The translations under genes and the position numbers were made by a program. A stretch of DNA of 64,000 bases, from IMG/VR virus record IMGVR_UViG_3300021256_000006, positions 1 through 64,000 of that record; one strand, given 5' to 3'. This DNA is from a virus. Below the pieces are notes generated by a model. That model was not told where the DNA came from and made no database searches. It saw only the letters and a program-made list of their open reading frames with translations. This document shows, one piece after another, positions 25,183 to 63,586 of this stretch. The stretch's first letter is position 1. Every line of letters starts with the position of its first letter.

Positions 25183-25207
25183 TTGCGTGCAACGGTTTAC
25201 CCGTTGC
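25183..25207 (+). repeat. hairpin motif copy (variant stem GCAACGG/CCGTTGC)
   Basis: TTGCGTGCAACGGTTTACCCGTTGC. Confidence 0.8.
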
Positions 25208-25328
25208 TACCTCAAATACCCCAAACACCTCAAATACTTTAATAATGTAAAAATGTAATAATGTGAAAATGTAACAAAAGATGCTCAACAACATAAAAAA
25301 ACTTTTGGCTGGCACCTCAAAAGAATGC

Positions 25329-25336
25329 TACCTTTG
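25329..25336 (+). promoter_or_regulatory. Bacteroidota -7 box TAccTTTG (rep promoter)
   Basis: About 185 nt upstream of the rep ATG. Confidence 0.5.
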
Positions 25337-25340
25337 CAGC

Positions 25341-25490
25341 GCTACAACTAAAAATATGTTTAACCTCTCTGTTGATTCCTTGTTGAATACATACTTATAT
25401 CATATAGGCGGTGGCCGTTTGGGTCATTCCAGATTCAGCAGAGGTATCCTTAGTTGTAGCAGACTTGGGAACGGCTACCGCCTTTCTTTT
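25341..25490 (+). promoter_or_regulatory. structured rep leader (terminator-like stem plus long-range pairing)
   Basis: 13-bp stem GGCGGTGGCCGTT/AACGGCTACCGCC (25407-25419/25470-25482) followed by TTTCTTTT. 11-nt GCTACAACTAA (25341-25351) is perfectly complementary to 25450-25460. Confidence 0.45.
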
Positions 25491-25522
25491 GGTTTGCTGC
25501 ACGGGATAAAAAACTTTTTGTC

Positions 25523-26923
25523 ATGGAAGAAAAAAAGAATGAGAAAAAGACACCTCTTGCCAAAAAGAGGGAAGTGGACGCATCTACTGCCACAGCGTCA
25601 ATGCCTGTAAGGTACATCAAGCAGCCTTACCCCATATCTGCAATGCAAGCCGATTTGAGCCGCCAGCAGATTAGAATATTGGTGGGCATGATGCAAAGCA
25701 TTCAGGATGGTGTGCAGGAAATGTTCAAGCATCCAAAACGGGATGAAAAAGGACAGCTGCTCTTGTTCCCAGAGCTGGAGGACGATCATGTCAACATCGA
25801 CTTCAAGTTCAGCGACGTGGTGGACCGTGCTGATAGCTATAAAAATGTGGAGAAGGTGGCACAGAAATTCATGCGGACGGTATTCCGCTACGAGGACAAG
25901 GAGGCCGGAGAGGTAACGCTGGCTCACTTCGTTGATAAGGTCTCATATCCGTCCAGAGGAAGCAAGCGTGACCGCATACGTTTCTCGTTCACCCGTGAAC
26001 AGGCAGAGGCTGTATTCAACTTCACCATGTATAGCCGATACCTTCAGAGCGTAGCCTTCAACGCGGGCAATAAGTACACGGCACGTCTATATATGTTGTT
26101 CACTACCTATCGTGGCTATGAGAAGAACGACACGGGGGTGTTCCACTGGTATGTGGGATATAATGAACTTCGGCGAATGTTGGGTTGCGACGAGTGCAAC
26201 GAGAAGGGAATATGGAAGCAAGTAAGCCAACTTCAGTACAAGCATTTCAAGGCGAATGTGCTGAAGACTGCCGAGGCTGAGCTTCGCTCGTTGGCAGAGA
26301 CGGGTAAGTCCGACTGCTGGTTTGAGTATGTAGAACTTCCTGAAGGCTGGAAGAAAGCGCCCGAACGCTTCGACTTTGTGGTGCACCTTACGGATATGGA
26401 CAAGAGCAAACAGATAGAAGAATCGAAGGAACTTGCTCCATTGACAAAGATGCTCACGGAGATGGGGCTGTCGGAGGAGGATGCCAAAGATGTTCTTTCT
26501 TCGGTGCATACCACCGATGGACTTGCCGACAAGATTGCCGAGATTGGCAGGGCAATGAGCAAGAGAACGAGCAAGGTGCGGAACGTGAAGAAGTATGTCT
26601 CGACGTGCTTGAACAAATGGAACCAGGAAGTGCGGGAGCGTGAAGATGCTGAGAGCGGACAGCACACCGACGCCACCACAATGAATAATGTGGGCAATAC
26701 AGAGGCACGGGCGCAATCAACCAAGGATAGCTGGATTAAGATAGTGGGCATGAAGAATTACAACACCTATCTCAAGTCGGTGGAAGTGAAGTGCGTGCCT
26801 GGCGAAAGCGCTCACGAGGAGAAACTCGTAGCCATTGCCCCACATCCGGAAGTGAAGAAATGGATTGAATCCTTTGGTCTCTCCAAACTTGGACTACACA
26901 GCTGCATCTTCAGCAACTCGTAA
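25523..26923 (+). CDS. replication initiator protein (Rep_3/RepB-like)
   Basis: 466-aa ORF immediately downstream of the iterons. The central region (FSFTREQAEAVFNF..YTARLYMLF..YNELRRMLG) resembles plasmid initiator winged-helix proteins. Confidence 0.6.
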   Translation: MEEKKNEKKTPLAKKREVDASTATASMPVRYIKQPYPISAMQADLSRQQIRILVGMMQSIQDGVQEMFKHPKRDEKGQLLLFPELEDDHVNIDFKFSDVVDRADSYKNVEKVAQKFMRTVFRYEDKEAGEVTLAHFVDKVSYPSRGSKRDRIRFSFTREQAEAVFNFTMYSRYLQSVAFNAGNKYTARLYMLFTTYRGYEKNDTGVFHWYVGYNELRRMLGCDECNEKGIWKQVSQLQYKHFKANVLKTAEAELRSLAETGKSDCWFEYVELPEGWKKAPERFDFVVHLTDMDKSKQIEESKELAPLTKMLTEMGLSEEDAKDVLSSVHTTDGLADKIAEIGRAMSKRTSKVRNVKKYVSTCLNKWNQEVREREDAESGQHTDATTMNNVGNTEARAQSTKDSWIKIVGMKNYNTYLKSVEVKCVPGESAHEEKLVAIAPHPEVKKWIESFGLSKLGLHSCIFSNS

Positions 26924-27053
26924 TGACCAACCATTCTCCTTGCCCACTTTTTTGTTCCCCAACTGTCCCACACTTTTTTCATAACTATCCCGCAAATTTT
27001 TCATAACTATCCCTAAATTTTCCACAGCTACATAATTATACATCCCACTTGTT

Positions 27054-27698: not shown

Positions 27699-27929
27699 CG
27701 TGTACCCATCATCATTCTATCCACTCCCATGCCTTCCCAGCTCTTCCCACTCTTCTCACTCTTTCTACTTATCTCCCAATCTTCCCGCATCTTTCCCACA
27801 TCTTTCCCACGTCTTTCCCGCCCTCTAATCTGATTAAACCAATGAAGTCCGGCTCATGTGCGCCATTTCTTATATGTAAAAAGAAATAAAAAAGTCCGTG
27901 AAATATTTGTTTGTTCATAAAAAAGTCCG

Positions 27930-27937
27930 TAACTTTG
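27930..27937 (+). promoter_or_regulatory. Bacteroidota -7 box TAacTTTG
   Basis: Context AAAAGTCCGTAACTTTGC, 31 nt upstream of the ATG at 27968. A near-identical box lies at 29506-29513. Confidence 0.5.
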
Positions 27938-27967
27938 CCCACGGAACAACAACAAAACAATCAAATC

Positions 27968-28657: not shown

Positions 28658-28687
28658 CAAATGCACTCCTGCATTTGTCTCAATTGA

Positions 28688-28735
28688 GTACAAGACCAGT
28701 CCTTTGTATCAGGGACTGGTCTTGTACTTTTCTTT
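28688..28735 (+). terminator. intrinsic terminator
   Basis: 15-bp stem GTACAAGACCAGTCC/GGACTGGTCTTGTAC followed by TTTTCTTT. Confidence 0.75.
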
Positions 28736-33022: not shown

Positions 33023-33130
33023 AATGAGGAGTTAGGAATTAGGAATTAGGAATTGATACCATGCCATCAGCATAACATTCCATTCCTCATTCCTCATTCC
33101 AAATTCCTAATTGTATCAACTCCTAATTCT
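33023..33130. repeat. palindromic heptamer element (AGGAATT arm / core / ATTCCTN arm)
   Basis: GAGGAGTTAGGAATTAGGAATTAGGAATTGATACC - core ATGCCATCAGCATAAC - ATTCCATTCCTCATTCCTCATTCC... Confidence 0.8.
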
Positions 33131-34181: not shown

Positions 34182-34300
34182 GGAGTTAGGAATTAGGAGT
34201 TAGGAATTAGGAATGAAATGTCATACCATTGGCAGAGTATCAATTCCTCATTCCTCATTCCTCATTCCTAATTCTATCAACATTCCTCATTCCTAATTCT
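34182..34300. repeat. palindromic heptamer element
   Basis: GGAGTTAGGAATTAGGAGTTAGGAATTAGGAATG - core - ATTCCTCATTCCTCATTCCTCATTCCTAATTC. Confidence 0.8.
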
Positions 34301-41606: not shown

Positions 41607-44600
41607 ATGGCAACAAAACTACAAAGGCTTCGCGACAACATCGAAGCCATCAGGCACGCCCTGACATCCCCGCATTACGATGCCGACATCATGAACAAGT
41701 ACACGGGATTTGGCGGCATGACTTTTCTCCTCAACAACTTGGAGAAGAAATCATGGAGCAAGACTGACAAGCCCTGCTATGACGACACCGTGAAACTGCG
41801 CCAGCTGCTGCATGACAAGAGCGAGAACGAGAAACAATACGAGGCATGGATACAGAGTCTGAAGGCAAGCACATCTACCGCCTACTACACACCAAGGGAG
41901 ATTCCTCAAACGCTCTTCGACAATCTCTACCACATGGCAAAAGGTTGGTACGACAGCAACATCTATCCCAAAAAGGTGCTTGACCCATCAGCAGGAACTG
42001 GAGTCTTCATGTGCTCTGTCCTCCAAGCCTCTCTGGATTCCGGCAACATCCCTAAGCAAGTGGGCTACGAACTTGACCTACTCACAGGAACTATCCTCAA
42101 ACAAAGACTCCTGGGGCATGACATCCGCATCAAGGGTTTTGAGACCATCCCGAATGAAGACCTCGGCACATTCGACCTCGTGACCACCAATGTTCCCTTC
42201 GGCAACATCAACGTGTTTGACCCTCTCTACACCAATAGCAAGGAGCAAGTGAAAAGGGATGCAGCAAAGATGATCCACCGCTACTATGTGCTGAAAGGTC
42301 TTGATTGCCTCCGCAATGGAGGAGTGCTTGCCTACATCATCACCAGCAACTACATCAACCGTGACAACGACCAATTGGCAGAAGCGCTGAAGCACGCCAA
42401 CCTCGTCACCGCCATCCGATTTCCGAACAACCTCTTCAAGGAGGCGGGAACAGAAGTAGGGACCGACCTTCTCATACTCCAGAAGGACGAGCACAAGCAA
42501 GCTCTCACAGAAGACGAGCAGCAACTCCTCACACCTATGGAAATGGACGATTGCCCAACCAACCTCTACTTCAACAATCATCCCGACCACATCATTGCCA
42601 CCTCCACCGAGATAGGCACCGACCCCTACGGAAAGCCTGGCTATATCTACTACCACAAAGACGGAGTGCAAGGCGTAGCCGCAGACATGGGCCGCTTGCT
42701 CAAAGCGGAATTGCCAAACATTGACAAGTCTGCCTTTCAAAAGGGCCCCTCACTCTCTCCATCTTCCTCCCTTGCAGTCAGCGGTTCCCCCGCTGACACC
42801 ACTTCCCCCGCTCCCACCGCCAAGCATCCCATTCCTAATTCCTCATTCCTCATTCCTAATTCCGAACCCCTCTTCTTCCACTATGCCAACAAGTTTTTCC
42901 TCTTCTTCACCTTTGCACCAAGCAAGCATCAAGCACCTGCAAGCAAAGAACAGAAACTGAAAAACTTGCACAAGTTATACACCGACCTCTACAATTACGA
43001 GGCAAGCTATCAGAACGAGGACGAAGAAGGGCGCTGCAAGTTGAATGCTTCTTATGATTTGTTCGTCAGGTCTTACGGTTTCCTGAACGATTCCAAGAAT
43101 GCTTCTCTTGCCAAGCGTTTAGGCATTACCGACTTGCTTGCCATTGAGCGTTACGAGAATGGCACATGGGTAAAGGCAGACATCATGCTGGCACCCGTCG
43201 CCTTCTCCACCGACGAGGAACCGAAAGCGAGCTCACCCCAAGAGGCATTGGCAGCATCGCTGAATAAATACGGAAAGCCCAATATTGATTATATGCTCTC
43301 CATCACCACCTGTACCCGTGACCAACTTCTCAGCGAACTGCATGACGAGGTGTTCCTCAACCCCATCAACGGGCAATACGAAGTCAGGGCAAAGTTCCTC
43401 AGCGGAAATGTGATTGAGAAGATTGATGCAATCGAAAAACTTTCAGCTTCTCAACTGTCAACTGCGACCTGTCAACTTTCGCTGAAGGCTCTCAAGTCTG
43501 TCATCCCCGCTCCCATTCCTTTTGAGGAACTTGACTTCAACCTTGGCGAGCGCTGGATTGACTGCAAGGTGTATGAGCGCTTCGCCAACGACTTCTTCTC
43601 CATGCCTGGCAACACTCCCGACATCGAGGTGCGCTACAATCCTCTCCTCGACCAGTATGCAGCAGGTCTCAGGAAATGGGACTGGAATGAGAAGATACGC
43701 ACTCAGTACGCGGTCAAGAGTGAAGCATCCAAGACGCTTGACGGACTTGAAATATTCACTCATGCCCTGCATAATACAATACCCAAGTTGATGAAGTATC
43801 AACGAGACAAGGAAGGGCGCATCATGACGGACGAGAACTACGATAAAATTAAAATAGAGGACTCGGAGAATATGCAGTTGGCAGCAACCAAGATTGAAGA
43901 AATCAGACAGGCATTTGAGGAGTGGCTACGCCGACAGCCAAGGGAGTTCAGGGATGATTTGGCCAGCGTATACAACCATCGCTTCAACTGCTTTGTCAAG
44001 CCTAAATATGACGGTAGCCATCAGACATTCCCGGACCTCAACATGAAAGGGCTGAAAGAAAAGTATGGCATTGACCACATCTACGACAGCCAAAAGGATT
44101 GCGTCTGGATGCTCTTGCTGAATGGTGGTGGCATCTGCGACCACGAGGTAGGAAGCGGAAAGACACTCATCATGTGTATTGCAGCCCACGAGATGAAACG
44201 TCTCGGACTGTGCCACAAGCCAATGATAATAGGCATGAAGGCCAACGTGAGTGCCATAGCAGAAACATATCGGACAGCATATCCCAATGCTCGCATCCTC
44301 TTCGCTACAGAGGCTGACTACTCGGCAAGCAACCGTATGGCGTTCTTCAACAACGCCAAAAACAACGACTATGACTGCATCATCATGAGCCACGACCAGT
44401 TCGGACGTATTCCACAGAGCGAAAAAATACAGCTCGACATCATGTGCGACGAACTGCGACAGGTAGAAGACAGTCTGACAGCAATGGAGGATTGGGGCTA
44501 CAAAGTGACTTCAAAAATGCTCCGTGGATTGGAGATTAGAAAGCGCAACCTTCACGCAAAAATCATGAACCTCCGCAATTCTATCAATTCGAGGAAGGAT

Positions 44601-46636: not shown

Positions 46637-46790
46637 TAGGAATTTGGAATGAGGAATGAGGAATGGTATGTTATGCTGATTGCATGGTATCAATTCCTAT
46701 CTCCTCATTTCTCATTCCTAACTCCTCATTGTATCAACATTCCATTCCTAACTCCTAATTCCTAATTCCTCATTTTGTATAATTCCTCAT
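46637..46790. repeat. palindromic heptamer element
   Basis: TAGGAATTTGGAATGAGGAATGAGGAATGG - core TATGTTATGCTGATTGCATGGTATC (inverted relative to the core at 33055-33080) - ATTCCT arrays. Confidence 0.8.
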
Positions 46791-46917: not shown

Positions 46918-46985
46918 CTGCGTACAGCGGTTTTCCCGCTGACACCGCTCAATCACCCTCCCTGCGTACAGCGGTTTTCCCGCTG
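46918..46985 (+). repeat. two hairpin motif copies (46918-46941, 46962-46985)
   Basis: CTGCGTACAGCGGTTTTCCCGCTG twice, 20 nt apart. Confidence 0.9.
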
Positions 46986-50042: not shown

Positions 50043-50204
50043 ATGACTGCAAAACAACTCGACCGCCTCATTGACGAGCTTCTTAATCTAACAGAAGAAG
50101 AACGTAAGCAATTCCTAAGCCGGATGCGACAAGTGATAAAGTCCACAGCTTGCAACTGTGAAGACCTTGCCAAAGCCTTTTCTAATTTCACGCAAGAAGA
50201 ATGA
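50043..50204 (+). CDS. hypothetical small protein
   Basis: 53-aa ORF found by hand (MTAKQLDRLIDELLNLTEEERKQF...). ATGA overlap with the HTH gene. Preferred over the antisense 95-aa track ORF. Confidence 0.4.
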   Translation: MTAKQLDRLIDELLNLTEEERKQFLSRMRQVIKSTACNCEDLAKAFSNFTQEE

Positions 50205-50422
50205 ATACAAGAACTAATATCGGCAAGCGCATTGCCGAACTCCGAGAACAACAAAATCTGTCGCAGAGAGAGCTGGCCCGTCGATGCAACATTGACCAGG
50301 CTCACATATCCAGAATAGAGCGAGGACTGTTATCGCCATCTCTCGACACGCTTGCAGAAATAGCGGAAACACTTGATGCCAAGGTGGAACTTGTCCCCTG
50401 CGCTCAACGGTTTTCCCGTTGA
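50201..50422 (+). CDS. XRE-family helix-turn-helix regulator
   Basis: IGKRIAELREQQNLSQRELARRCNIDQAHISRIERG. The last 8 codons are supplied by hairpin motif copy 50398-50421. Confidence 0.75.
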   Translation: MNTRTNIGKRIAELREQQNLSQRELARRCNIDQAHISRIERGLLSPSLDTLAEIAETLDAKVELVPCAQRFSR

Positions 50423-52171: not shown

Positions 52172-52195
52172 CTGCGTCCAGCGGTTTTCCCGCTG
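52172..52195 (+). repeat. hairpin motif copy
   Basis: CTGCGTCCAGCGGTTTTCCCGCTG. Confidence 0.9.
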
Positions 52196-52214: not shown

Positions 52215-52247
52215 CAAAAAGCGCCCGACTTTCACAAGCCGGGCGCT
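52215..52247 (-). terminator. intrinsic terminator of the tape-measure operon
   Basis: AGCGCCCG/CGGGCGCT stem followed on the minus strand by UUUUU. 33 nt after the stop at 52280. Confidence 0.7.
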
Positions 52248-52279: not shown

Positions 52280-55200
52280 TTACAAATCTATACCTCGTCT
52301 TTGCGCAAACCTGTCGCCTTTCTTCCCCGTTGCTCTCATGCCATACTTTCCATAGTAGTCCACGATGGCGGGGATTCCAGTTTGCTTGATGTCTGCAAGC
52401 ACAGAAGACAGTTCAGAAAGAGTTTGTCTCATGCTCTCCATAGTGCCATCGGTTGAAGGCATAGATGCAGGACTGATAACCTCTCCGATATTTCCGTCTG
52501 CATACGCGCGTACACCTCCACGATTCATCACCACCTCATTGCCCATTCTTGCAGTCTTGGAGAAGTCAATGCTCCGCATTCCATACTGCTTCATGGCATA
52601 AATGCGTCGCAGAGTCTCGGGGTCATACCGTTTCAGTCCTTCGTAAGTCTGGTGGTCGATAATGACTTCTGCCCCTTTCTCGCCCACGATGCCTAAATGA
52701 GGCCCGTTCACCACGCCCGTCTTCAAGTTGGGCTGGTACTTGGCAGCATACGTCTGCCCGTCATTGCCCCTCACACTCACCAACTGGCCCTGCACACGTC
52801 CGTTTCCATCATCCGCATACGCTCCATTCGCATACACTGGATAACGGCCCTTGCCGTAGGTCAGCATACCTGTAGCAAGTTTGCCAGCACTGCCACTGCT
52901 CACGCCAGTTGCAGCAGAAATAGCGCTTCTCGCTTTGGCTGACAATGCGCTGAACACCATGGTCATTAAGAGAGAAAGCCCGGCACCAATAGCCCAGCCA
53001 ATCCAACCAGCTCTTGATGCTTCTTTGGCTTGTGCGCTGGCTGCATCTGTGGCATTCTGTGCCAATTTCACGGTCTCTTCGGCTTGTGCAGTCTGTCCCC
53101 ATACTTTCATTTTTGCCGCTTGTGCTTCAAGTTCGATAGCAAGGAGTTGCTGCTGCTTGACTTGCTCGTTCAATACTTCCATTTTGTCGAACATCTGCTT
53201 GGTGGAGACATAAACAAGCCATTGTGTCAGCATCTTTCCTGTTGTTTGAATCAAATTGGCGAGTGCTTCTCTTGCGGCTTGTTGTCTGTCCTCTTTTTTG
53301 CCAAACATATTGGCACCAAAATCTTCAGCGAATGAATGAAGATTGTCATAATAGGGCTTAATCTGTTCAACGCTATTGGTCATCAGCTCAAACTGCGCTT
53401 GAGTTGCATTTCGCTGGGCTTCTTCCACATCATGCCATGCTTCTGCCTCTGCTTTCATAGAGGCGGTCTTCAGCGCCTCTGCCTCTTGCATCAGTAAAGC
53501 CTTCTCTTTCGGGTCGCCTTCCAGTTCAATTCTTTTCTGAATAGCGGCTATCTCCTTAGCATATCGCTCCTTGTCGAGCAGGTATTGCTCTTTCTTGATG
53601 GCAAGTTCTTCTTTAAGGATGTCGATGTTTGAATACTCTGAAGTGGTCACTCCTGCAACGTCATTTCCAGCCATTCCCCACGATTCTGCCACGCCTTCCG
53701 TCTGCTGGCGCCTTGATAGGCGGTTCGTTCTTTCTTCCCATCGCTGATTTTGCGATAGACCATCTTCTCCAACCATGCTCCGCTCCAGTTCAATTCTTCG
53801 CTCAATCTTCTTAATCATCTTTCGAGTGGCATCTTCATAATCATCGTAGAAACTTTGTGTTTTGAGCACAAGGGCCGACAGCGCATCGGGTGAAAGGCTT
53901 TCAATCCATGCGTTAATGGCTGGGTTGCCGTTCTTTTTGGCGTCTTCTTTCAGTTCTTCGGCAGTCAACGCATATCCTTTTTTGGCTTCCTCCATTAAGA
54001 ACGACATGCGCTCAATCATCATCTTCCGTGTTTCTTCTTCCGTGTGCAGCATGGCTTCATCGGCATCGTTCCAAAGCACACCGAGGTCTGCAAGGTCTTT
54101 GGTGAACGATTCCGCAACTTTGGCAATTGGGCGCTCGTCCAGCAGCACCTTCAGGATTTTTTCTCTATTAGCACGGATATTTTTCTCCAACTCATTCTCG
54201 TCTTTGGCAATGTTCAGCTTGATGCCATCCACCATATTCTGCCCCATACCTTTCAAGAATTCACTCAATGCAGGGAAATCAACCCCCTTCATCAGGTCTT
54301 TCACACCCTCTGTTGCAAACTCATGACTGCTGTCAAGCCATTTCTTGCGAAGGTTCTCACGTTCTAACAGGTGCTCTTGCTCGTTGGCATACATATAGCG
54401 GTTGTATTCATCCTCGCCAATCATCCCCTCATTCAGATACTTCTCTGCCATCATCTTTCTCCGTTCGTAATATTCTTCTAACTTCTTCAAGGTGGCATCC
54501 ATCAGTTCCTTCATTTCGGTTTCTTTCTTCCCTCCCTTCTTGTCTGTAAAGTCTTTGAAGTCACCTTTAGGGTTGGCAAAGTTATCTGTTTCTTGCATTT
54601 TCTTTGCTTCTTGCCAGTTGGTATATGCCCAATTTCTGATCTGCTCCTTGGTCCAGAAGTTGATGTCGGACGGAATGGTTACGCCTGCAGGTGTCTTGTG
54701 GGCGCTGGTCCGCTGAATGTCTTGCCCTGACCTCCAGTTTTTATAGATGTCATTGAAGAAGTCAACAACGTCGGCCAGGTCTGCTCCGGCCTGCTCGGAA
54801 AGGTCAAAGGAAGTCTTTCCCCACGGCTTGATGTATTCAAGCAACTGGGGGATTGCTTTCGCGAACTCTTTGGAATACTTGTCTCCGTATTTATTGCGTG
54901 GGTCTTTATCGTATTTCTCGTTTAATTCTCTGTACTTTGTGATATTGGCATACAGCTCTCTGTATTCCATGCCAGTCTTTTGGGGATTTTGCTGGGCTGC
55001 TACAATCTGCTTCCTCAGTTCTGTCATAAGACGGATTTCCTCGTCTTGTGCCATTTGTTTCTGACCTTTGGCTTGCTCCACAAACGGTGCCCTCACCATT
55101 TCTCCTTCAAACACAGCGTTGATATAATCATTCACGGCTTTTTGAAGGCGTGTGGTCCGTGATTGGGATTTGGCAGCGACGCGCTTTCCCCCGCGCACCA

Positions 55201-58200
55201 TCATGATTTGACCAGTCAATTGATTGGTTTCGTACTTGGTGTTGCTGTCTCCTCCTGTTCCCCAGGTGGTTGCCACCAGTCTTTGGTCATTGCCAAGTCG
55301 TCTGCCAAGTTCGGCTTGTATGCGCTGTTTCAGCTTTTCTTGTTCCGACTTGCTTTGCGGAATACCTTCTTCTGTCATTTGCAGCACCACGCTCTGTATG
55401 CTCGATGCGATATTGCTGCGGTCGTAGGAGGAAATACCTTTCCGTTTGGCCCAGTTCTCGCCCAGATTACCTTGCATGAGCGCTTCTATCATGGCGCCGA
55501 TGGCTTCTCTTTGGTCGTCCCCACTGGCTTCTTCTGCTGCTTGTTTGCCTTTTTCTTCCATGGCTGCTGCGTTCTTTTCGCGGATGGCTGCGGCAGCTTC
55601 ATGATAGGCTATTTTCAACCGTTTGGCAACGTCTTCTTCACGGAGAAGTTTCGAGAGGTAGCCTCCGAACATACGGTTAAAGGCGTTGATTTTGTTGGTT
55701 CTGTCTTGCTGGGCAAGGTTCACATTCTTCAAACTGCGGTACAGGGAATTAAGGCTTGCGATTTCATCCTCGACCTTGTTTTGAAGTTCACCAAGACTCT
55801 TCCTTGCGTCTGCTGTGGCTTTGGCTGTGCGCATGAGATACCCTATCAGCATGCCTAACGCAGTCAGTACAAGTCCAATCCAGTTACTGCTCCACGCAAT
55901 CTTAAAGCGCTCTGTTGCCTGTCGCGCTTTTTCTGCAGCGACGGCGCTTCCCAGCAATGCGGCGGTCTTTAAGGCAAGGACCTTGACGCCTTGATACATG
56001 ATTTGTATAAGCCCGAACAATGTTCCCTTGAATCCTTTATAGGTGGATTCGTTCAATGCGGCAGCGACTGAATCCTGCCACCACGCTTTGGCGTTGACAA
56101 TAAGTTGTTTGGTCAGTACGAGCAATGTGGCAATGACAACTCCGCCAAGGATATTCCACTCTCTCAGCCATTTTACAAAGCCGAGCAGCGTATTGGCCGC
56201 AGTCAGCATTGAGCTATTGGTTCCTTCTACACTGGTGGTCATCTCGTAGAACTCATTGCCTACCTGTGCCATCACACCGGCCAGGTTGTTGTTGGCTCGC
56301 TCAAATTCTTGCGTGACAAGGGTGCCTTCCGCAAATCCTTCCTCTGCAAGGGCAACTTGATAGTTAAGTTCGCCTATGTGTTGGCTTAACAATGCCATGG
56401 CGTTTCTTGCCTGAACATTGTTTCTGCCTCCTATGGCTTTGAAGAAATTGTCATATACGGCAGGACCTTGCTCGCCCAGTTCTGTCAACACAAGCTCTAA
56501 CGCCTCAAAGGTTTTGCCAGCTTGTATCATCTGGTCAAGTTCGTCATAACCGATATTCAGGGCTTGTGCCACGTCTTTGGTATGAGACACAATGCCGAGA
56601 ACCACACGCTGTGTGGCGGTTGAGGAGCGTTCCATGGTCTCGCCTAACGAGCTGAAGGCTCCGCCTAAACCGAAGATTTGCTGCATGGTCAGTCCGGTCA
56701 CACTTCCTGTTGCGCCTAATCGCTTGGTGAACTCTACAACGTCTGCGTAGGTGGCTTTGGAGTTGTTACCGACATTCAAAATAGCAGAGCCAATCTTGTT
56801 CAGGTCTTTTTCCAAACCCTCGCTCTGCTTGTTGACAACATCATTCACCTTCAGCAGGTCGTTGATGGCCTCTGCGCCGCCAATATCACCAAGGGTGTTA
56901 AGAATCTTCTGTCCTTCTTTCACGAAAGAGACAAGACCGTCTGCACCTTCTCGGGTCGCAATACCCAGTTTACCTGCCTGTTCTGCCATCTCCATCAACT
57001 GCTGATTGCTCATTCGGGTGTCAATGGACTGAATGGCATTGGTCATGTGCTCGATTTCTTCTGTTGTCAACTGCGTGACTTTTTGTACATTGGTCATTTG
57101 GTCACTCAGCTCAATCGTGTTATGGATGATTTCTCGTGTCTTGTTCATCAAGGCATTAAAGCCAATATAAATCATCACATAGTTTTTGAGTCGGCTGAAA
57201 GCATTTTCAAGCGTAGAGACATGATGTGCCATGTGGCCGTTCAACCGCTTCACTTGCTCGTTGATGGCTTTGAGTTGCATCGCCTTCTCGTTGTACTCTT
57301 TCTGTGCAGGACTCAGGCTTTCTATCTCTTTTTTCAGCGTCTCGTAGGCGTTCTTCAACTCTGTCAAACTGCGCTTCTTTAACTCGCTTCCTCTGTATTT
57401 CTCCCACTTGATTTCGCTGGATGCCACCTGCTTTGTCTTCCGGTCAATGGCAGTCAGCATGGTCTCTATTTGCTTCAATTGCTCCGGATCTGCGTTTTTA
57501 AGACTCTTCTTGAAGGCTTCAAGGTTGGTCCGAATGGCTTGCAGTTCCTTGGTAGAGGAAGGCAATATTTTGACAACGCGACCAACTCCTTCTATTGCTG
57601 CGTCGTGAAGATTATTGAAGGCTTGTTCTCCGTCAATTACATCTTGCTTGGTTTGTGCAAGGGCCTCGTTGAGTTTGTTGATGGCGTTAGTCGTCGCTTC
57701 CAGTCCAGAACGGTCGTCTGTGCGCAGTTCACTCTTGTATGCCTGTATCTTTTTGATGGCTTCTTCGGTCTCCTTGATGGTGCCTTGGAACTGCCCATTG
57801 TTGACCTGCGTAACTAATGCTTGACCTTCACTAATAGTCGATAATTGTTTGCGATATTCAAGTTCTGCATTAAGTGCTTTTAGGTGGACTGTAGCCGTTT
57901 CTATCTCCTGACTTCCCTGCTTTGCCTTTTCCTGTACCGTCGTCCAATATTTCTGCAGGTTGGCTATTTCTGATTTGCTAAGTTCTGAAACGTGATCCAT
58001 CTCTACAGACATTTGTGTAAACATGCTTGTTCCAGCCTTGTATTTCGATGCGTCTTGGTAGGTCTGTAGATATTGTGTGCCACGAGCAATGGCGCTGTTC
58101 AATTTGTTGGCATATTCTTCTGTAAGGTTTGTCTGCTGCGCAAATTTTTGGAGATACTCCACAGATTTCTGTACTTCTTCAGGCGTTCGGAGGTCCATAA

Positions 58201-59020
58201 TGCCTTTTTGGAGACTTTTTAGGCTTTTTTCAAGAAGAAGACCTCTGGCCTCTTTGTATTTGTCATTGAATAGTTCAATTTGCTTTGCGCTTGCACCACT
58301 ATACTCACCCATCTCTTTCCAAAACATGGCAGACCGTTCTAAATCTTCCCGACTCATGCTTTCTGTCAGTTTCTTCAACGAGCCATTGAGATACCCAATG
58401 CGTAATTTTGCATTGGTAGCGTTCTCGCCCATCTGCGCAAATGCCTTGTTGCTGTTTTCGTAATTGTCAGCAAGTGCTTTTCCGCTTTGTTCGTAGGTCT
58501 TAATATATCGTGTCAATTCCTCTACTCCCAACGAACTCGTCTTCAGTTTTGCCGTCATGTCCTGGAACCCTTGCCCAATAGCATTGGCTTGTGCTTGCAG
58601 TCCTGTCATTTCCTTAACAAGTCCTGCGATATGGCCTCTCAACTTTTCTGCTTCGGCTGCATCAAGGTCTTTGAGGCTGATGCTCTTGACACCCTTAATG
58701 ATAGACTTAGTGGCTGTCTCCAGTTTCTTGCCCGACTCCACCGTCTTGTTGTTGATGATGTCAAGAACGGTGCTTGCTTGTTTCCCAAGGTCCTGAAGAA
58801 GTTTCTTCTGTCGCTCATAATAGGCGTTTGCTTTATCCACGTTCTTTGCCTGAGCCTTGTAAGCCTCAGTACCTGCAGAAAGTGTTTTCAGCAATTCCTT
58901 TTGGTCTTTCAAAGAATCCTTTGCGTTCTTTGCAATCTTCTTCTGAGCTTCATACACGGCATCCATTCCGCTGATGCCGAACTTGACCACCCTCTCCTGT
59001 AAAATTCGTTTGTCTGCCAT
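52280..59020 (-). CDS. tail tape measure protein
   Basis: 2246 aa with long coiled coils. TMP core-like segment GATGSVTGLTMQQIFGLGGAFSSLGETMERSSTATQRVV. Internal hydrophobic helices. Confidence 0.8.
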   Translation of the reverse strand: MADKRILQERVVKFGISGMDAVYEAQKKIAKNAKDSLKDQKELLKTLSAGTEAYKAQAKNVDKANAYYERQKKLLQDLGKQASTVLDIINNKTVESGKKLETATKSIIKGVKSISLKDLDAAEAEKLRGHIAGLVKEMTGLQAQANAIGQGFQDMTAKLKTSSLGVEELTRYIKTYEQSGKALADNYENSNKAFAQMGENATNAKLRIGYLNGSLKKLTESMSREDLERSAMFWKEMGEYSGASAKQIELFNDKYKEARGLLLEKSLKSLQKGIMDLRTPEEVQKSVEYLQKFAQQTNLTEEYANKLNSAIARGTQYLQTYQDASKYKAGTSMFTQMSVEMDHVSELSKSEIANLQKYWTTVQEKAKQGSQEIETATVHLKALNAELEYRKQLSTISEGQALVTQVNNGQFQGTIKETEEAIKKIQAYKSELRTDDRSGLEATTNAINKLNEALAQTKQDVIDGEQAFNNLHDAAIEGVGRVVKILPSSTKELQAIRTNLEAFKKSLKNADPEQLKQIETMLTAIDRKTKQVASSEIKWEKYRGSELKKRSLTELKNAYETLKKEIESLSPAQKEYNEKAMQLKAINEQVKRLNGHMAHHVSTLENAFSRLKNYVMIYIGFNALMNKTREIIHNTIELSDQMTNVQKVTQLTTEEIEHMTNAIQSIDTRMSNQQLMEMAEQAGKLGIATREGADGLVSFVKEGQKILNTLGDIGGAEAINDLLKVNDVVNKQSEGLEKDLNKIGSAILNVGNNSKATYADVVEFTKRLGATGSVTGLTMQQIFGLGGAFSSLGETMERSSTATQRVVLGIVSHTKDVAQALNIGYDELDQMIQAGKTFEALELVLTELGEQGPAVYDNFFKAIGGRNNVQARNAMALLSQHIGELNYQVALAEEGFAEGTLVTQEFERANNNLAGVMAQVGNEFYEMTTSVEGTNSSMLTAANTLLGFVKWLREWNILGGVVIATLLVLTKQLIVNAKAWWQDSVAAALNESTYKGFKGTLFGLIQIMYQGVKVLALKTAALLGSAVAAEKARQATERFKIAWSSNWIGLVLTALGMLIGYLMRTAKATADARKSLGELQNKVEDEIASLNSLYRSLKNVNLAQQDRTNKINAFNRMFGGYLSKLLREEDVAKRLKIAYHEAAAAIREKNAAAMEEKGKQAAEEASGDDQREAIGAMIEALMQGNLGENWAKRKGISSYDRSNIASSIQSVVLQMTEEGIPQSKSEQEKLKQRIQAELGRRLGNDQRLVATTWGTGGDSNTKYETNQLTGQIMMVRGGKRVAAKSQSRTTRLQKAVNDYINAVFEGEMVRAPFVEQAKGQKQMAQDEEIRLMTELRKQIVAAQQNPQKTGMEYRELYANITKYRELNEKYDKDPRNKYGDKYSKEFAKAIPQLLEYIKPWGKTSFDLSEQAGADLADVVDFFNDIYKNWRSGQDIQRTSAHKTPAGVTIPSDINFWTKEQIRNWAYTNWQEAKKMQETDNFANPKGDFKDFTDKKGGKKETEMKELMDATLKKLEEYYERRKMMAEKYLNEGMIGEDEYNRYMYANEQEHLLERENLRKKWLDSSHEFATEGVKDLMKGVDFPALSEFLKGMGQNMVDGIKLNIAKDENELEKNIRANREKILKVLLDERPIAKVAESFTKDLADLGVLWNDADEAMLHTEEETRKMMIERMSFLMEEAKKGYALTAEELKEDAKKNGNPAINAWIESLSPDALSALVLKTQSFYDDYEDATRKMIKKIERRIELERSMVGEDGLSQNQRWEERTNRLSRRQQTEGVAESWGMAGNDVAGVTTSEYSNIDILKEELAIKKEQYLLDKERYAKEIAAIQKRIELEGDPKEKALLMQEAEALKTASMKAEAEAWHDVEEAQRNATQAQFELMTNSVEQIKPYYDNLHSFAEDFGANMFGKKEDRQQAAREALANLIQTTGKMLTQWLVYVSTKQMFDKMEVLNEQVKQQQLLAIELEAQAAKMKVWGQTAQAEETVKLAQNATDAASAQAKEASRAGWIGWAIGAGLSLLMTMVFSALSAKARSAISAATGVSSGSAGKLATGMLTYGKGRYPVYANGAYADDGNGRVQGQLVSVRGNDGQTYAAKYQPNLKTGVVNGPHLGIVGEKGAEVIIDHQTYEGLKRYDPETLRRIYAMKQYGMRSIDFSKTARMGNEVVMNRGGVRAYADGNIGEVISPASMPSTDGTMESMRQTLSELSSVLADIKQTGIPAIVDYYGKYGMRATGKKGDRFAQRRGIDL

Positions 59021-59094: not shown

Positions 59095-59118
59095 CTGCGT
59101 CCAGCGGTTTTCCAGCTG
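59095..59118 (+). repeat. hairpin motif copy (one stem mismatch)
   Basis: CTGCGTCCAGCGGTTTTCCAGCTG. Followed by a CCCTCAT-type pyrimidine heptamer tract at about 59150-59258. Confidence 0.8.
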
Positions 59119-59254
59119 TCTCTCTCCTTTCCCCTCTCTTCGTCTTCGTTTTCGTCCTCCTCCCTCCTGCGCCCGCCGGTCCTCTCTCCCCTCTCCTCTC
59201 TTCCCTCATCCCTCATCCCTCATACATCTTCCCTCATCCCTCTTCCCTCTTCCC

Positions 59255-61174
59255 TCACCATCTCCGGCTCCCCCATCTTCCGTTCTTCCATGCGTTATGA
59301 CTTCTTCCGCTCCACATCGTCTGCTCTTTCATACCAAACTTGCAAAGTCCTCGCATGATATTGTCGAAGGCATCGCTCATGTCGGTGTAGTTGTTGCTGC
59401 CCAGTTCATCATCTGTACTCATCCCATCACCGCTTGTGCGCTTCTCTGGAGCCTTGTACTTGTGCAACTTGCCCATCTTTGTCGTCGTCTTTGAGTTCTC
59501 CAGCGAGGCCACAAGATAGTCATTGCGAATAGCGTTAATTCGTGGCATATACCGCTCTTTACCGGCAAAGCACGCATTGATAAACTCAAACTTCACATCG
59601 TGGAACATCGGATTGCCCATGTCAATCATGATGACATTCCATCCATGATTTTCGAGTGATTCACGGATGATATTGTAGAAGTAGTATCGTTCATCGTTTC
59701 CAGCGCGACTGGCATACGAGCGCCCTTGCTTGCCTGTGCTGTCATAGTATAGCACGACGTCTTTGCAGGTGTACTGGTGTGGAGCGTAGTAATTGTGCCA
59801 CTTCTCCATAAGGTCTTCCAGCATCTTTGGATTCTTCATGAACATGCTGGATAGGATGATGGCGCTTTCTGTGCCATCCATCATGCCCGTCTGTGCAGTC
59901 ACCACCGTATTCACGTTGGAGTTGTAGTCATGAGCAATATAGAGTGGCTTGCCCGGCTGCATATCCACGTCAAGGGTGCAGTTGCCGCCTACGGCACCGA
60001 GTTCCTGAAGGTCTGGCGCCTCATAATCGTAGGTCTTGCTGTAAGCTCCGAGGTCAATGTTGGCCTTGTGCTTGGACTGAAACTTGCTGTAAATACGGTT
60101 GGTCTCATCGCTTTGGCTTGGCGTGTAGCCGTGAATATCCATGTCGAAGTTCGGATAAAAGCGCTGTGACTTGTCTAACGTGGCTTTCTTTCCAAGAATC
60201 TGCACGTTGTACAAGAGGTCTGGCATGTCTCGTTTTCGGTCTGCCATGTACTGCATTCCTAAAATGCTGGCATTGTAAAACGAAGAGAACCTAAAGAACA
60301 CTCTGGACTGGCACCTCAAATAGCGGAGCCGTTCTACAAACTTGGGCGCATGGGATAATTGCCAGGCTGCATCCGTCGTGTATCGACCGTCTTTCTTGTT
60401 GGCTTCATCATATTCTTCTGCATATTTCAGTTGCGCCAGCATCTCGCAGATGAGGTCATTGTAGTCTCCCGTTTGGTCTTCTTCCATGCATTCCCACTCT
60501 TGCTGCTTCTTGATGACTCCTGCATCGGAGAAGAAGGACTCGGAGAGGTAAAACGGGTTTTCGTTCCGTCTGTAACCGGGGTGATCATATACTTCGCCAC
60601 GCAGAGCAGGACGCACAGACTCCACATAGTTCCTCCAGTTGGCATATCTTGCCTCGTCCATCAACGAATAGCTGAGGTTCAGACCATTTGCTGGGGCGTA
60701 GGAATTGGTGGAGATGCACATCAGGATATTCCCGTTGATGAACGACAGCACGTTCTCCCATCGGCGAGGAACAGCCATAGGTTTGTCCCATCCCCACCGC
60801 GCGTTGGGCTTTCCGCGCACAAAGTCACGGCCCTCTATGATGCCAAAAGTCTCCATCGACTTCACAAGGTTGGGCATCAGGATGGCAAACACCTGCTTGA
60901 TGGTGGCGCCAAACAACGCACCTGTTGCCCTCGGCAAGGTGGCTACGCACCCATGTAGCCGGGTGGATTCAAAGGTGGTCTTGCCCAGACCACGACCGCC
61001 GCACATAGCCATTGACTTGCTGCCCATGTTGTGTGCCAGCCGTTGTGCGGGATTAAGATACACCTGTTTGGTCCCACTCGCCATAGGTGTCTCTTCCGTC
61101 TCGCTAAACATCAATGGGTACTGCTTGGCCACGTCTTTGATGTTATCCTCTAATGTAAGCCCATTTCTTGCCAT
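59255..61174 (-). CDS. terL: terminase large subunit
   Basis: Walker A CGGRGLGKTT and Walker B LSYSLMDEA. C-terminal nuclease-like half. 639 aa. Confidence 0.8.
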   Translation of the reverse strand: MARNGLTLEDNIKDVAKQYPLMFSETEETPMASGTKQVYLNPAQRLAHNMGSKSMAMCGGRGLGKTTFESTRLHGCVATLPRATGALFGATIKQVFAILMPNLVKSMETFGIIEGRDFVRGKPNARWGWDKPMAVPRRWENVLSFINGNILMCISTNSYAPANGLNLSYSLMDEARYANWRNYVESVRPALRGEVYDHPGYRRNENPFYLSESFFSDAGVIKKQQEWECMEEDQTGDYNDLICEMLAQLKYAEEYDEANKKDGRYTTDAAWQLSHAPKFVERLRYLRCQSRVFFRFSSFYNASILGMQYMADRKRDMPDLLYNVQILGKKATLDKSQRFYPNFDMDIHGYTPSQSDETNRIYSKFQSKHKANIDLGAYSKTYDYEAPDLQELGAVGGNCTLDVDMQPGKPLYIAHDYNSNVNTVVTAQTGMMDGTESAIILSSMFMKNPKMLEDLMEKWHNYYAPHQYTCKDVVLYYDSTGKQGRSYASRAGNDERYYFYNIIRESLENHGWNVIMIDMGNPMFHDVKFEFINACFAGKERYMPRINAIRNDYLVASLENSKTTTKMGKLHKYKAPEKRTSGDGMSTDDELGSNNYTDMSDAFDNIMRGLCKFGMKEQTMWSGRSHNAWKNGRWGSRRW

Positions 61175-61175
61175 A

Positions 61176-61252
61176 TCAATTCCCTAATTGTCAACTATCA
61201 ACTGTCAACTATCAACTGTCAGCTATCAACTGTCAATTATCAATTCCCTCCT
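61176..61252. repeat. heptamer array (TGTCAAC/TATCAAC class)
   Basis: Direct reading. Immediately followed by hairpin motif copy 61256-61279 (CTGCGTCCAGCGGTTCGCCCGCTG). Confidence 0.85.
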
Positions 61253-61895
61253 CCCCTGCGTCCAGCGGTTCGCCCGCTGGTTCATCCATCTTGTGTGTAA
61301 TACGGTTCCCAACTTCCACTTCCTGCTTCTCCTTCAACTTATCCAGTGCTTTTTCAATCTTCTCATCATGTTCATCAATATGCGCATCCCATTGTCGCAT
61401 AATGCCCAGCAAAGTCTTGTCGCCAATCGTTTTGCGGTCAGGGTCAAGCACCTCGACGTAGGGAGTGTACACAAAGGCTTGTGGTCTGATTTGCTTGTCT
61501 TCAACCTCCGGCTCTGGCTTGTCAAGTTGATTGGCTCTTGTCAGCACCTTGGCAGCATCGAGCATGCCTTTTCGGTCGTTCACTGCCGCAGAATCTCGCA
61601 TGACCTTTTCGCTGGCCCAGTTCACCAGGTCTTTCGCCTTCTGCCGTGTCATGCGCTGAAAGTTGTTGCGGATATACTCGAAGTAAACCATGTCCTCAGC
61701 AATCATGGACGGTGAATGTTTGAACTTCCACCGTAGGCACTGAACCACATCCATGCAAGGATTCTCGTTGTACATGTCGTACAGCGAAAACAAGTCATTA
61801 AGCCTCTTGCGAACGTGCACAAGTTCCGTCAGTTCGTGTGCCGGAATGCCGTTCACGAAGTGTGACTGAATAAAAGGTGTCAAATCTGTCTTCAT
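61233..61895 (-). CDS. hypothetical protein (possible small terminase by position)
   Basis: ATG at 61895 (MKTDLTPF). The track start at 61913 is a TTG inside the repeat array. Lies directly upstream of terL. Confidence 0.5.
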   Translation of the reverse strand: MKTDLTPFIQSHFVNGIPAHELTELVHVRKRLNDLFSLYDMYNENPCMDVVQCLRWKFKHSPSMIAEDMVYFEYIRNNFQRMTRQKAKDLVNWASEKVMRDSAAVNDRKGMLDAAKVLTRANQLDKPEPEVEDKQIRPQAFVYTPYVEVLDPDRKTIGDKTLLGIMRQWDAHIDEHDEKIEKALDKLKEKQEVEVGNRITHKMDEPAGEPLDAGEEGIDN

Positions 61896-61897
61896 AT

Positions 61898-62000
61898 AAC
61901 TGTCAACTATCAACTATCAACTATCAACTATCAATTCCTCATTCCTAATTCCTAACTCCTAATTCCTAACTCCTCACTCCTAACTCCTCACTCCTAACTC
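61898..62000. repeat. heptamer array (TATCAAC units then ANTCCTN units)
   Basis: Direct reading. Confidence 0.85.
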
Positions 62001-62302
62001 ATCATTCTCAATTTCATCTCTTTCTCTATCTCTTTCAGCAGTATTTTTTTTTCTGCCTTTTCGTCTGCGAGGCTCTTGATGGCTGTGTCGTATTGGTCCT
62101 GTGCCATCTTCATGTGGCGGTCAAGTTCTTCAATCGCGCCCTCGGCCCATGGAAGGAATGAGGCAAGCGCTTTCACTTCCGTATCCATTGCTTTTTCCTC
62201 TTCGTCCGTGAATGGCACCATGGGGCGCTCATGCATGACTCTTAAATACTCTTGTTCCATCTCTTTCAGGTATTTACACTTTGCGCACAACGCTCTCCAC
62301 AA
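61994..62302 (-). CDS. hypothetical protein
   Basis: 102-aa ORF. Alternative non-overlapping ATG at 62260. Confidence 0.5.
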   Translation of the reverse strand: MWRALCAKCKYLKEMEQEYLRVMHERPMVPFTDEEEKAMDTEVKALASFLPWAEGAIEELDRHMKMAQDQYDTAIKSLADEKAEKKILLKEIEKEMKLRMMS

Positions 62303-62693
62303 ACACCATCATTGATTTTTGGTCGTAGATTCCGACATACAAAGGCTTTACGTCTTGGTCAACGACCGTGAAATGCAGCAAGTGCACTTCTTCTTTCTTC
62401 ACACCGTCCGATTCTCCTGCACTTCTGCGCTCATGATTCACATGGGCGAGAATACGGTCTAAATAGAACTTGACCTGCTCTTCAAACACCAGCTCTTCAA
62501 ACCATGAGTGATTCAAGATGGCAACAATTTTGAGCAGCCATTTCTTCCAGCGTGCCATTTTGTGCGCACGCAAAGCAAAGTCAAACATACTTGTATCAAG
62601 GAGTTCCTGATACAAGTCCTGACGGATAAAGACATGAGGCGTGTCAACGTCCACCGCCAAACGGTCATTTTTTAATTCGTCCCTAATATTCAT
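62274..62693 (-). CDS. hypothetical protein
   Basis: ATG at 62693 (MNIRDELKNDR). The track TTG start at 62729 lies inside the repeat array. Confidence 0.5.
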   Translation of the reverse strand: MNIRDELKNDRLAVDVDTPHVFIRQDLYQELLDTSMFDFALRAHKMARWKKWLLKIVAILNHSWFEELVFEEQVKFYLDRILAHVNHERRSAGESDGVKKEEVHLLHFTVVDQDVKPLYVGIYDQKSMMVFVESVVRKV

Positions 62694-62817
62694 ATTCCTA
62701 ATTATCAATTGTCTAATGTCTAATGTCAAAAGTCACAGGCCGAATGGCAATTATCAACTGTCAACTGTCAACTATCAACTATCAATTCCTAATTCCTCAT
62801 TCCTAATTCCTAATTCC
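62694..62817. repeat. composite heptamer array (full copy)
   Basis: TGTCTAA units, then AGTCACAGGCCGAATGGC, then TATCAAC/TGTCAAC units, then ATTCCTN units. It fills the whole intergenic gap. Confidence 0.85.
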
Positions 62818-63442
62818 GATAAGGCCTACTTTTCACGTCCACATAATTGTCCTCCAGCGTATAATCATCGGTGGACCCGTTCTTAAACGGAGCGTGCAGG
62901 AGCCGTGCAACCTCTCCCCCAATCTCTGCACCAATTAGGTTAGCGATATGGATGTCAATCAGCACGCCAGCCTCGCTCATCAGCTTATAACTGATACGCT
63001 CAACTTGTCTTCTAATCTCGCTTCGCAGAAACGGTCTGGGTCTGTGGGTCTCCTCACGTCTCGCGTTTTGTGGCACCCCGCTGAAGGATGCTTTCAAGGC
63101 GCTATATCCGTATGTCGAAATCTGTGGCGCTTGAATGTTCTTACTCTTTACACCAACCTTTTTCCCAAGGTCTTTATCCACGCCATAATACTTACCTACG
63201 GCCTGTTCCACGCAGTCTCCGTAGTTCCAGTAAAAAAACTCAACAAGAGCCTCGTTCCCTCCGGCGTTGGTGTGAACAAGCGCCCTTATGCTGTCGCGCA
63301 AAGCTCCGGTGTTATAGATATTCATGCGGTCTATATGGTCAAAAATTTTTCCGACCGTATCTACCACAAAATAATGAAGGATAATGTAAACTTCCGAGGA
63401 AAATTTACGCTCCAGGTCTATTCTGCTATCTAATTGCGCCAT
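62810..63442 (-). CDS. HK97 gp10-like head-tail connector / tail completion protein
   Basis: NTGALRDSI resembles the TGxLRxSI signature of the HK97 gp10 family. Confidence 0.45.
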   Translation of the reverse strand: MAQLDSRIDLERKFSSEVYIILHYFVVDTVGKIFDHIDRMNIYNTGALRDSIRALVHTNAGGNEALVEFFYWNYGDCVEQAVGKYYGVDKDLGKKVGVKSKNIQAPQISTYGYSALKASFSGVPQNARREETHRPRPFLRSEIRRQVERISYKLMSEAGVLIDIHIANLIGAEIGGEVARLLHAPFKNGSTDDYTLEDNYVDVKSRPYRN

Positions 63443-63449
63443 ACACTAA

Positions 63450-63586
63450 CCGTTTTCGTTTTCGTCTTCGTTTTGGTTTTCGTTTCTCCTGCGCTCAGCG
63501 GTTTTCCCGCTGGCCCTCTCTCCTCGTCTCTCCCGCCGTTTTCGTTTTCGTTTTCGTTTCTACTGCGCTCAGCGGTTTTCCCGCTG
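63450..63586 (+). repeat. GTTTTS hexamer arrays plus two hairpin motif copies (63489-63512, 63563-63586)
   Basis: CTGCGCTCAGCGGTTTTCCCGCTG twice, 50 nt apart. A C9 run follows at 63594-63602. Confidence 0.9.

Follow-up and report, generated by a model that had tools for sequence, protein, structure and literature searches.

A short hairpin repeat confined to one strand of a large tailed phage and shared with Prevotellaceae chromosomes

Why would a phage genome carry many copies of one small hairpin, all facing the same way irrespective of the direction of the genes around them? The question is raised by a 64,000-nt stretch of the IMG/VR virus record IMGVR_UViG_3300021256_000006 (hereafter the window), in which a reading of the letters alone, the original prediction, had placed eleven copies of a 24-nt hairpin on the plus strand. 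The window corresponds, in reverse complement, to positions 30123-94122 of a 99,478-bp metagenome contig, and with the flanks that we fetched (9.4 kb on the right, 5.4 kb on the left) our analysis covered 78.8 kb of that contig. Its source is a ~100-kb tailed phage, possibly a phage-plasmid, of rumen Prevotella-type bacteria. Our tentatively preferred answer, which we hold at somewhat less than an even chance, is that the hairpin is an interspersed element resembling the repetitive extragenic palindromic (REP) sequences, recognized as single-stranded DNA (ssDNA), and spread or retained strand-specifically in a replicon that is copied in one direction.

The predicted copies are real and are far more numerous than chance allows. 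A search for the stem-loop CARCGG-N5-CCGYTG, with one mismatch permitted, matched exactly the 11 predicted sites in the window, as against 0.32 expected from dinucleotide-preserving shuffles (shuffle maximum 3). The full 24-nt consensus at three mismatches or fewer recovers 8 of the 11, the copies at 25183, 42772 and 46138 diverging in flank or loop. A covariance model, R1, which we built from 56 family members, found the 11 copies and one weak extra match, all on the plus strand; it gave no minus-strand match anywhere in the window and no match in positions 1-25000. Three further plus-strand copies lie in the right flank, at window-equivalent positions 66514, 69616 and 69697, and the left flank holds none. 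A degenerate relative suspected at 9959-9985 turned out to be a different hairpin with a ~10-nt loop, undetected by R1.

The copies, all on the plus strand, occupy varied settings, and the gene directions around them are those originally described. The first (25183-25206, TTGCGTG-CAACGG-TTTAC-CCGTTG; R1 37.0 bits) lies 18 nt past the last of a series of Rep3 iterons and ahead of an AT-rich stretch. Two are in sense within the open reading frame (ORF) of a methylase-helicase and do encode SGSPA, at 42772-42795 (37.4 bits; ..AVSGSPAD.., in a P/S/T-rich linker) and 46138-46161 (26.3 bits; ..ALSGSPAE..); the weak extra R1 match, which is doubtful, falls in the same ORF (45141-45179; 17.5 bits, E 0.02). 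The 536-bp gap 3´ of this gene contains a pair spaced by 44 nt (46918-46941, 40.7 bits; 46962-46985, 45.1 bits). The XRE gene at 50201-50422 terminates within the next copy (50398-50421; pattern and R1), which supplies its last codons and stop (...PCAQRFSR*), again as predicted. Among the leftward genes, one copy (52172-52195; 45.8 bits), bordered by C/T-rich tracts, lies in a gap between two genes and is antisense to both, and another (59095-59118; pattern and R1) lies between the minus-strand terminase and tape-measure genes. A further copy (61256-61279) is antisense in the 3´ tail of a leftward gene (61233-61895; ..PAGEPLDAG..), and a pair spaced by 74 nt (63489-63512 and 63563-63586; both pattern and R1) has leftward genes on either side, the first member with a CGTTTT array on its 5´ side. 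Spacing is irregular, with a 17.6-kb gap at one extreme and pairs 44-81 nt apart at the other.

What is maintained in these copies is the hairpin as a structure and not as a sequence. In a selection-free test, every GGTTNNCCC 9-mer was taken regardless of pairing. Of 14 plus-strand occurrences in the extended window (the window with its flanks), 13 have all four outer positions complementary, and the sole minus-strand occurrence has one of four. In L059, a pig-gut relative whose terminase is 71% identical, 20 of 20 occurrences are on the plus strand with three or four of the four outer pairs each, and in the locus L003 seven of seven are on that strand, six of them perfectly paired. The outer stems themselves vary freely: we found CAGCGG, CAACGG, TGACGG, CGGCGG/AGGCGG, CATCGG, ATGCGG, GTGAGG, GCAAGG, CGTCGG and AAGCGG, and six stem classes occur among the L059 copies alone. 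The original prediction had noted the paired change to CAACGG/CCGTTG at two sites; it is present at both (25190 and 50405) and also at 66514, and at least eight stem variants stay complementary. In an alignment of 56 sequences, partly selected for pairing, 97% of cells are paired and both sides have changed in 63 cells, compared with 12.8 in shuffles; more telling is the seventh pair, which lies outside the selected stem, is Watson-Crick in 40 of the 56 copies and is made by four pair types. Folded as ssDNA, copies reach -6.7 to -9.4 kcal/mol, with z-scores of -3.3 to -5.1.

Conserved sequence is limited to the apex and loop, GG-TTYNC-CC (loops in the window read TTNNC on the plus strand), and to a one-sided flank, CC(C)TGCG (TGYG), 1-2 nt 5´ of the 6-8-bp stem. 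G occupies position -5 in 75 of the 76 unique copies, with C or T at position -4 and G or A at position -3. The hairpins are usually embedded in C/T-rich DNA. Since a structure, an asymmetric loop and a one-sided flank alone are conserved, recognition is most likely of folded ssDNA and not of the duplex.

The same features bear on the proposal that the hairpin is a duplex operator or partition site, bound on its 6+5+6 dyad by a dimeric helix-turn-helix protein, a ParB-like protein or Rep. The site is indeed dyad-symmetric, the XRE gene ends within one copy and two helix-turn-helix genes are nearby, and the phage-plasmid N15 offers a precedent for palindromic centromere sites that are scattered. 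However, a dimer that reads sequence needs constant half-sites, and here these vary within a single genome, as the six L059 stem classes illustrate; conservation falls on the asymmetric loop and on one flank only; a symmetric site would need no fixed orientation; and copies are found inside ORFs and in host chromosomes. The operator role, one of those first suggested for the motif, is thus disfavoured, and we consider it highly improbable.

The strand rule is as strict as the pairing. Plus-to-minus counts are 14 to 0 in the extended window, 20 to 0 in L059, 7 to 0 in L003 and 4 to 0 in L012, the last two being the only real multi-copy loci from exact 17-mer and relaxed 14-base scans of IMG/VR, which otherwise returned mostly single chance matches. 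Nearly all loci with at least two strict copies have them in direct orientation only; L249, with one copy per strand ~6 kb apart, is an exception. Gene direction does not account for this. The 14 plus-strand copies are divided between rightward genes (nine) and leftward genes (five), and five window copies, at four sites, are antisense to every neighbouring gene.

Replicon polarity does match. It is set in the window by a Rep3-type initiator gene (rep; 25523-26923, plus) and by ~14 direct iterons with the unit GGTCTAACAATTCCAAC upstream of it (24648-25165, plus), a block that is interrupted by an AT-rich stretch and is likely a plasmid-type origin; the hairpins share this orientation. L059 has identical iterons (16160-16499) upstream of its own rep, whose product is 58% identical. 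In both genomes the primase gene is on the opposite strand (10077-13484, minus, in the window) and all hairpins are on the rep-sense strand. The terminase block runs leftward in the window and rightward in L059, where it is inverted relative to rep, and the strand rule is unchanged. The gene immediately upstream of the terminase, a small one that four phages share as orthologues at 56-62% identity, shows this at a single site: its C-terminal tail carries the motif in antisense in the window (..PAGEPLDAG..) and in sense in L059 (..PAVDGSPVN..), and the orthologous tails in L063 and L266 have no motif. The two copies are thus separate acquisitions at one permissive spot. Orientation, then, follows the replicon and not the gene, as had been predicted.

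Can the direction of replication be read from this? In L059, copies lie on either side of the origin without any flip in orientation, which points to one-directional copying if replication sets the rule. The original prediction had proposed comparing orientation with both origin and GC skew; the copies are co-oriented with the Rep3 iterons and rep, and the skew proved uninformative on fork direction, third-codon positions having no matching replicon-wide bias. The non-coding DNA of the extended window is G-poor on the plus strand whether the flanking genes run leftward (GC skew -0.26) or rightward (-0.17).

This compositional asymmetry speaks in favour of a by-product that nothing recognizes: C/T-rich spacers would grow by slippage and duplication, template switching would keep quasi-palindromes perfect, and the orientation would be no more than the asymmetry of the spacers. 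The hexamer and heptamer arrays that lie beside hairpins share the strand bias, and tandem pairs and one decayed copy are what such a process would leave. But stems of different sequence accompany this loop, apex and TGCG flank in the distant phages L003 and L012, in host genes and in coding linkers, and local slippage cannot explain a hairpin that recurs in unrelated contexts; the copies are also dispersed over 45 kb at 11 separate sites. We think this explanation unlikely.

Tandem arrays are a feature of the window in their own right. Hexamer arrays (CGTTTT/TTTCGT) occur at 63451-63485, 63537-63559, 4449-4478, 4728-4759 and 5192-5225; two of them are directly 5´ of hairpin copies, and similar tracts adjoin copies 59095 and 69616. 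Arrays of 7-nt units (AATTCCT, TCCTAAC, CAACTAT, AATGTCA), mostly in one orientation on the plus strand, occur in many intergenic gaps, at 33023-33112, 34182-34299, 46638-46774, 18997-19147, 61898-62007, 62748-62817 and 5504-5678. At three places inverted pairs of these arrays could form a long hairpin, and those at 33023-33112 and 34182-34299 coincide with weak microRNA-like Rfam matches.

Comparison among relatives indicates that the motif comes and goes. L059 has 20 copies in 21.5 kb, compared with 11 in the 64 kb of the window, and 80 loci recovered as terminase relatives gave together 11 matches in 935 kb. The terminase relatives L063 (77% identical), L266 (82%) and L066 (53%) have no match or one weak match, as does L267, a 93.5-kb contig that was reached through a homologue search with a neighbouring 1628-aa protein and has no hairpin copies. 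As to conservation in related phages, which the original prediction had put forward as a test, pairing is kept in L059, and the motif itself is patchy, being absent from the L063 and L266 tails. Copies also change in place. The gap between the terminase and tape-measure genes holds two intact copies in L265 (93% identical); in the window it holds one copy (59095) whose stem has a G.A mismatch, the orthologous L265 copy being perfect, and a remnant identified from the same comparison (59163-59181, plus), in which the flank and half of the stem survive (CCTCCTGCGCC-CGCCGG) and the 3´ half is gone. Pairs of copies 44-81 nt apart point to local duplication, and in one L059 protein the motif lies in a 34-aa P/T-rich stretch that is inserted by comparison with the orthologue in the window. 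The motif behaves as an expanding and decaying repeat.

These comparisons bear directly on whether the hairpins serve the replisome as sites that it reads on one template strand, either for loading or reloading of primase or helicase or as strand-specific nick or pause sites; in a version involving priming, synthesis could possibly start on the conserved G-Y-R/CTG flank and the polypyrimidine tract would be copied. Several findings fit: in two genomes whose iterons are identical the copies are locked to the rep-sense strand, copy 25183 lies between the last iteron and the AT-rich origin stretch, and the phage has its own primase, a 1135-aa DnaG-type zinc-finger protein. The geometry of the hairpin, with a flank 5´ of it on the template strand, resembles that of the promoters of the N4 virion RNA polymerase. 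Yet the L059 origin, with its identical iterons, has no hairpin, nor do loci with a rep at ~60% identity, so the motif is not an obligatory part of the replication module, and the idea of an origin element is weakened accordingly. The motif is also absent from close relatives, is irregularly spaced, has no copy in the 30 kb left of the origin, tolerates decayed copies, and is found on host chromosomes, mostly within ORFs. Replisome-read sites are possible, though on balance we doubt them.

Two observations on assemblies and relatives may be added. The contig ends of L016, L018, L019, L021 and L022, which represent the same phage in two other assemblies, lie ~20-100 nt from hairpin copies, and it seems that short-read assembly is interrupted at the repeats. 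In L267, a reverse transcriptase (RVT_1) at 22789-23231 is located beside large tail-fibre-like genes, which suggests that it is part of a diversity-generating retroelement.

The hairpin is not restricted to phages. A scan of one genome per species with the pattern CTGCGNNCAGCGGTTNNCCCGCTG gave 32 loci, 16 of them in rumen or deer Prevotellaceae and Bacteroidales metagenome-assembled genomes, often as arrays in C/T-rich DNA. These copies adjoin housekeeping and PUL (polysaccharide utilization locus) genes, among them those for SusD-like, rhamnosidase, RpoC, DnaB and SMC-like proteins, neighbours that identify the host copies as chromosomal. The remaining matches could be set aside as one orthologous Stenotrophomonas signal-peptide ORF or as chance in high-GC DNA (Streptomyces). 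Further copies at the host loci, which the CTGCGNNCAGCGGTTNNCCCGCTG scan did not select, have stems that are paired yet varied.

Most host copies are inside ORFs, although C/T-rich DNA is poor in stop codons and some of the small ORFs may be spurious for that reason. Among the sense copies within real ORFs, 18 of 19 are read in the frame x-[S/D/C]-G-[S/F/L]-P-[A/V/T] and are placed in P/S/T-rich linkers. It might be supposed that the peptide (SGSPA or DGSPV) is the primary cause of the repeat. We reject this: the paired codons of coding copies are mutual reverse complements (AGC..GCT, GAC..GTC, TGT..ACA, AGT..ACT), and other frames are used by the antisense copies, seven of which lie in L003 within a 3684-aa ORF. 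The coupling between reverse-complementary codons implies that nucleic-acid pairing, not the peptide, is what persists, and the bias in frame is best explained by filtering for linker peptides that proteins tolerate. One host locus (L047, 917-5062) encodes a rhamnosidase/BNR protein with six tandem copies in a low-complexity stretch of repeated ..PAPSGSPA.., a case in which the DNA palindrome is built into the protein repeat.

Could the hairpin act in RNA instead, as a stem-loop that makes mRNAs more stable, ends or marks them, or causes ribosomes to pause at linkers, with the plus orientation simply that of the transcribed strand? The host copies lend this some weight, since 43 of 44 are in sense to their ORF or nearest gene, including copies downstream of rpoC and dnaB. 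In the phages, most L059 copies are in sense, several of them 10-25 nt past stop codons, and copies 66514 and 69616 of the extended window are 17-19 nt past the stops of rightward genes. An RNA role does not accommodate the five window copies that are antisense to all neighbours, the seven antisense copies of L003, or the orthologous tails that hold the motif in opposite sense in two phages. Nor do the copies have the expected attributes: there is no T-run 3´ of the stem, the tape-measure gene has, just past its stop, a canonical hairpin and T-run terminator of its own (~52219-52247, minus) separate from copy 52172, terminator-like sites are not enriched (19 found, 19.5 expected), mismatched copies show no one-strand G-U pair asymmetry, and a search of the whole window against Rfam 15 gave no match overlapping any copy at E <= 1. 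An RNA stem-loop or terminator, also among the first suggestions, is accordingly disfavoured in the phage, and we regard the explanation as a whole as improbable.

Two other suggestions made at the outset, an ssDNA hairpin tied to the direction of replication and a REP-like element, both fit the data, and we have merged them in the tentative reading given above. According to this model, elements resident in the chromosomes of rumen and gut Prevotellaceae would colonize some ~100-kb Rep3-type tailed phages, where copies would accumulate wherever the sequence is permissive (spacers between genes, the tails of genes and flexible linkers in proteins), duplicate locally and decay. A folded single DNA strand would be recognized through its structure, loop and TGCG flank, and new copies would be made or kept only on the strand exposed as ssDNA during one-directional replication, whether unidirectional theta or rolling-circle. 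We infer here an ssDNA stage, a replication direction and an enzyme; the Y1/HUH enzymes of the IS200/IS605 and REP-RAYT (REP-associated tyrosine transposase) families offer a model for such a choice of strand, and the mobilizing enzyme would be expected to be host-encoded. The substrate of Y1 transposases, TnpA-REP among them, is ssDNA of the lagging-strand template, and Bacteroidetes have subclasses that are associated with REP sequences (PMC6006769). In Pseudomonas fluorescens, tandem arrays of REP sequences take their orientation from the replichore (PMC3116915).

Several of our results weigh against this model. The sense bias of the host copies is not what a rule based on replication only would predict. 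The direction of replication is deduced from the copies and receives no help from third-codon skew, and the plus strand is C-rich, whereas bacterial lagging-strand templates are usually G-rich. Pfam tables (PF01797-type) for the 78.8 kb of phage contain no Y1/HUH or other mobilizing gene, and a crude motif scan of the fetched loci found no HuH...Y(I/V)xxNP pattern. The copies are direct singlets and not the inverted doublets typical of REPINs and BIMEs (bacterial interspersed mosaic elements), and when the insertion site upstream of the terminase was aligned as DNA, no clean boundaries, junctions or target sites emerged. Finally, template switching in DNA palindromes can yield seemingly compensatory changes in the two arms without selection.

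A bolder interpretation would make the hairpin a structure-based polar signal that phages and their Prevotellaceae hosts have in common and that an ssDNA-binding enzyme of replication, repair or defence reads on one template strand. We see in this a lesser possibility, and rather doubt it. If true, the hairpin would be an equivalent of Chi or of the FtsK-orienting polar sequences (KOPS), or a dispersed site of priming or reloading; Rep3-type 100-kb phages would replicate one way, and the in-frame copies would represent dual coding under selection.

When 14 kb of the phage that carries these repeats was compared with INPHARED phages by megablast, nothing matched, and single-protein scans for related loci in IMG/VR recovered almost nothing. 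Its large terminase (59255-61174, minus; 639 aa) was identified by tblastn, which aligned ~90% of its length at 20-25% identity with terminases annotated in Microcystis and Porphyromonas phages; this ORF has no Pfam or PHROG match. It is directly followed by a gene for a 2246-aa tape-measure-like protein (52280-59020, minus), which is an unusual arrangement. A head protease gene was identified, the "polyvalent" proteins ArdC, PcfJ and the methylase-helicase are encoded as well, and an HU-HIG protein points to Bacteroidota. The window has no tRNAs. An intergenic gap in the rightward gene block contains a Pistol self-cleaving ribozyme (RF02679; 30791-30869, plus) that scores 47.9 bits against a gathering threshold of 34.5 (E 1.2e-5).

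The hairpin would add a REP-like repeat family to a major and poorly studied lineage of the gut and rumen and to its phages. Its strict one-strand rule is a testable handle both on ssDNA-dependent spread of repeats and on the replication of large Rep3-type phages, and its sharing between host and phage provides a sequence marker that ties uncultured phages to Prevotellaceae hosts. The in-frame copies illustrate how a nucleic-acid palindrome can shape protein linkers. There is also a practical consequence, in that short-read assemblies of these phages seem to be broken at the repeats.

How does the hairpin compare with known systems? A search of the literature found no description of this motif or of REP-like repeats in Prevotella. 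The closest likeness is to REP/BIME (REPIN) sequences and their RAYT enzymes, which share with it a short GC-rich hairpin, a conserved tetranucleotide 5´ of the stem (GTAG in REP, TGCG here), many and, the host loci apart, mostly extragenic copies, stem subfamilies, tandem clusters, decayed copies and presumed action on ssDNA. In contrast to REP/BIME, the loop rather than the stem is conserved here, copies reside in phage genomes and within ORFs, inverted doublets are lacking, and no RAYT gene or REPtron was found in the loci scanned. The ends of IS200/IS605 elements likewise consist of a subterminal hairpin and a short flank that are read in ssDNA, and the orientation of IS insertion is set by replication direction, as that of the hairpin may be. 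Unlike those elements, the present repeat is a single type of hairpin of ~25-40 nt with no left and right ends, no transposase was found in the 78.8 kb and the fetched loci, and we saw no defined target tetranucleotide.

Residence in genes recalls the Rickettsia palindromic elements, palindromes that are tolerated in ORFs and add a short peptide in surface or linker regions. At 100-150 bp they are longer than the present hairpin, and neither a strand lock nor sharing with phages is known for them. Strand-specific hairpins of which the structure and a few bases are read include the single-strand initiation sites and single-strand origins (ssi/sso), the phage G4 origin and the promoters of the N4 virion RNA polymerase, the last also having a conserved flank on the 5´ (template-downstream) side. 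Those signals number one to a few per replicon and are fixed and essential, whereas the present hairpin has 14 to more than 20 irregular copies, is dispensable in close relatives and occurs in host ORFs. Chi and KOPS are similarly aligned with replicon polarity and not with genes, but they are linear 8-mers, read in duplex or threaded DNA and distributed genome-wide, and are not hairpins. Among these systems, the element is best filed as a REP-like palindrome with unusual traits: a strict one-strand orientation in phages, singlet copies, conservation of the loop while the stem is free, occurrence in both host and phage, and in-frame residence.

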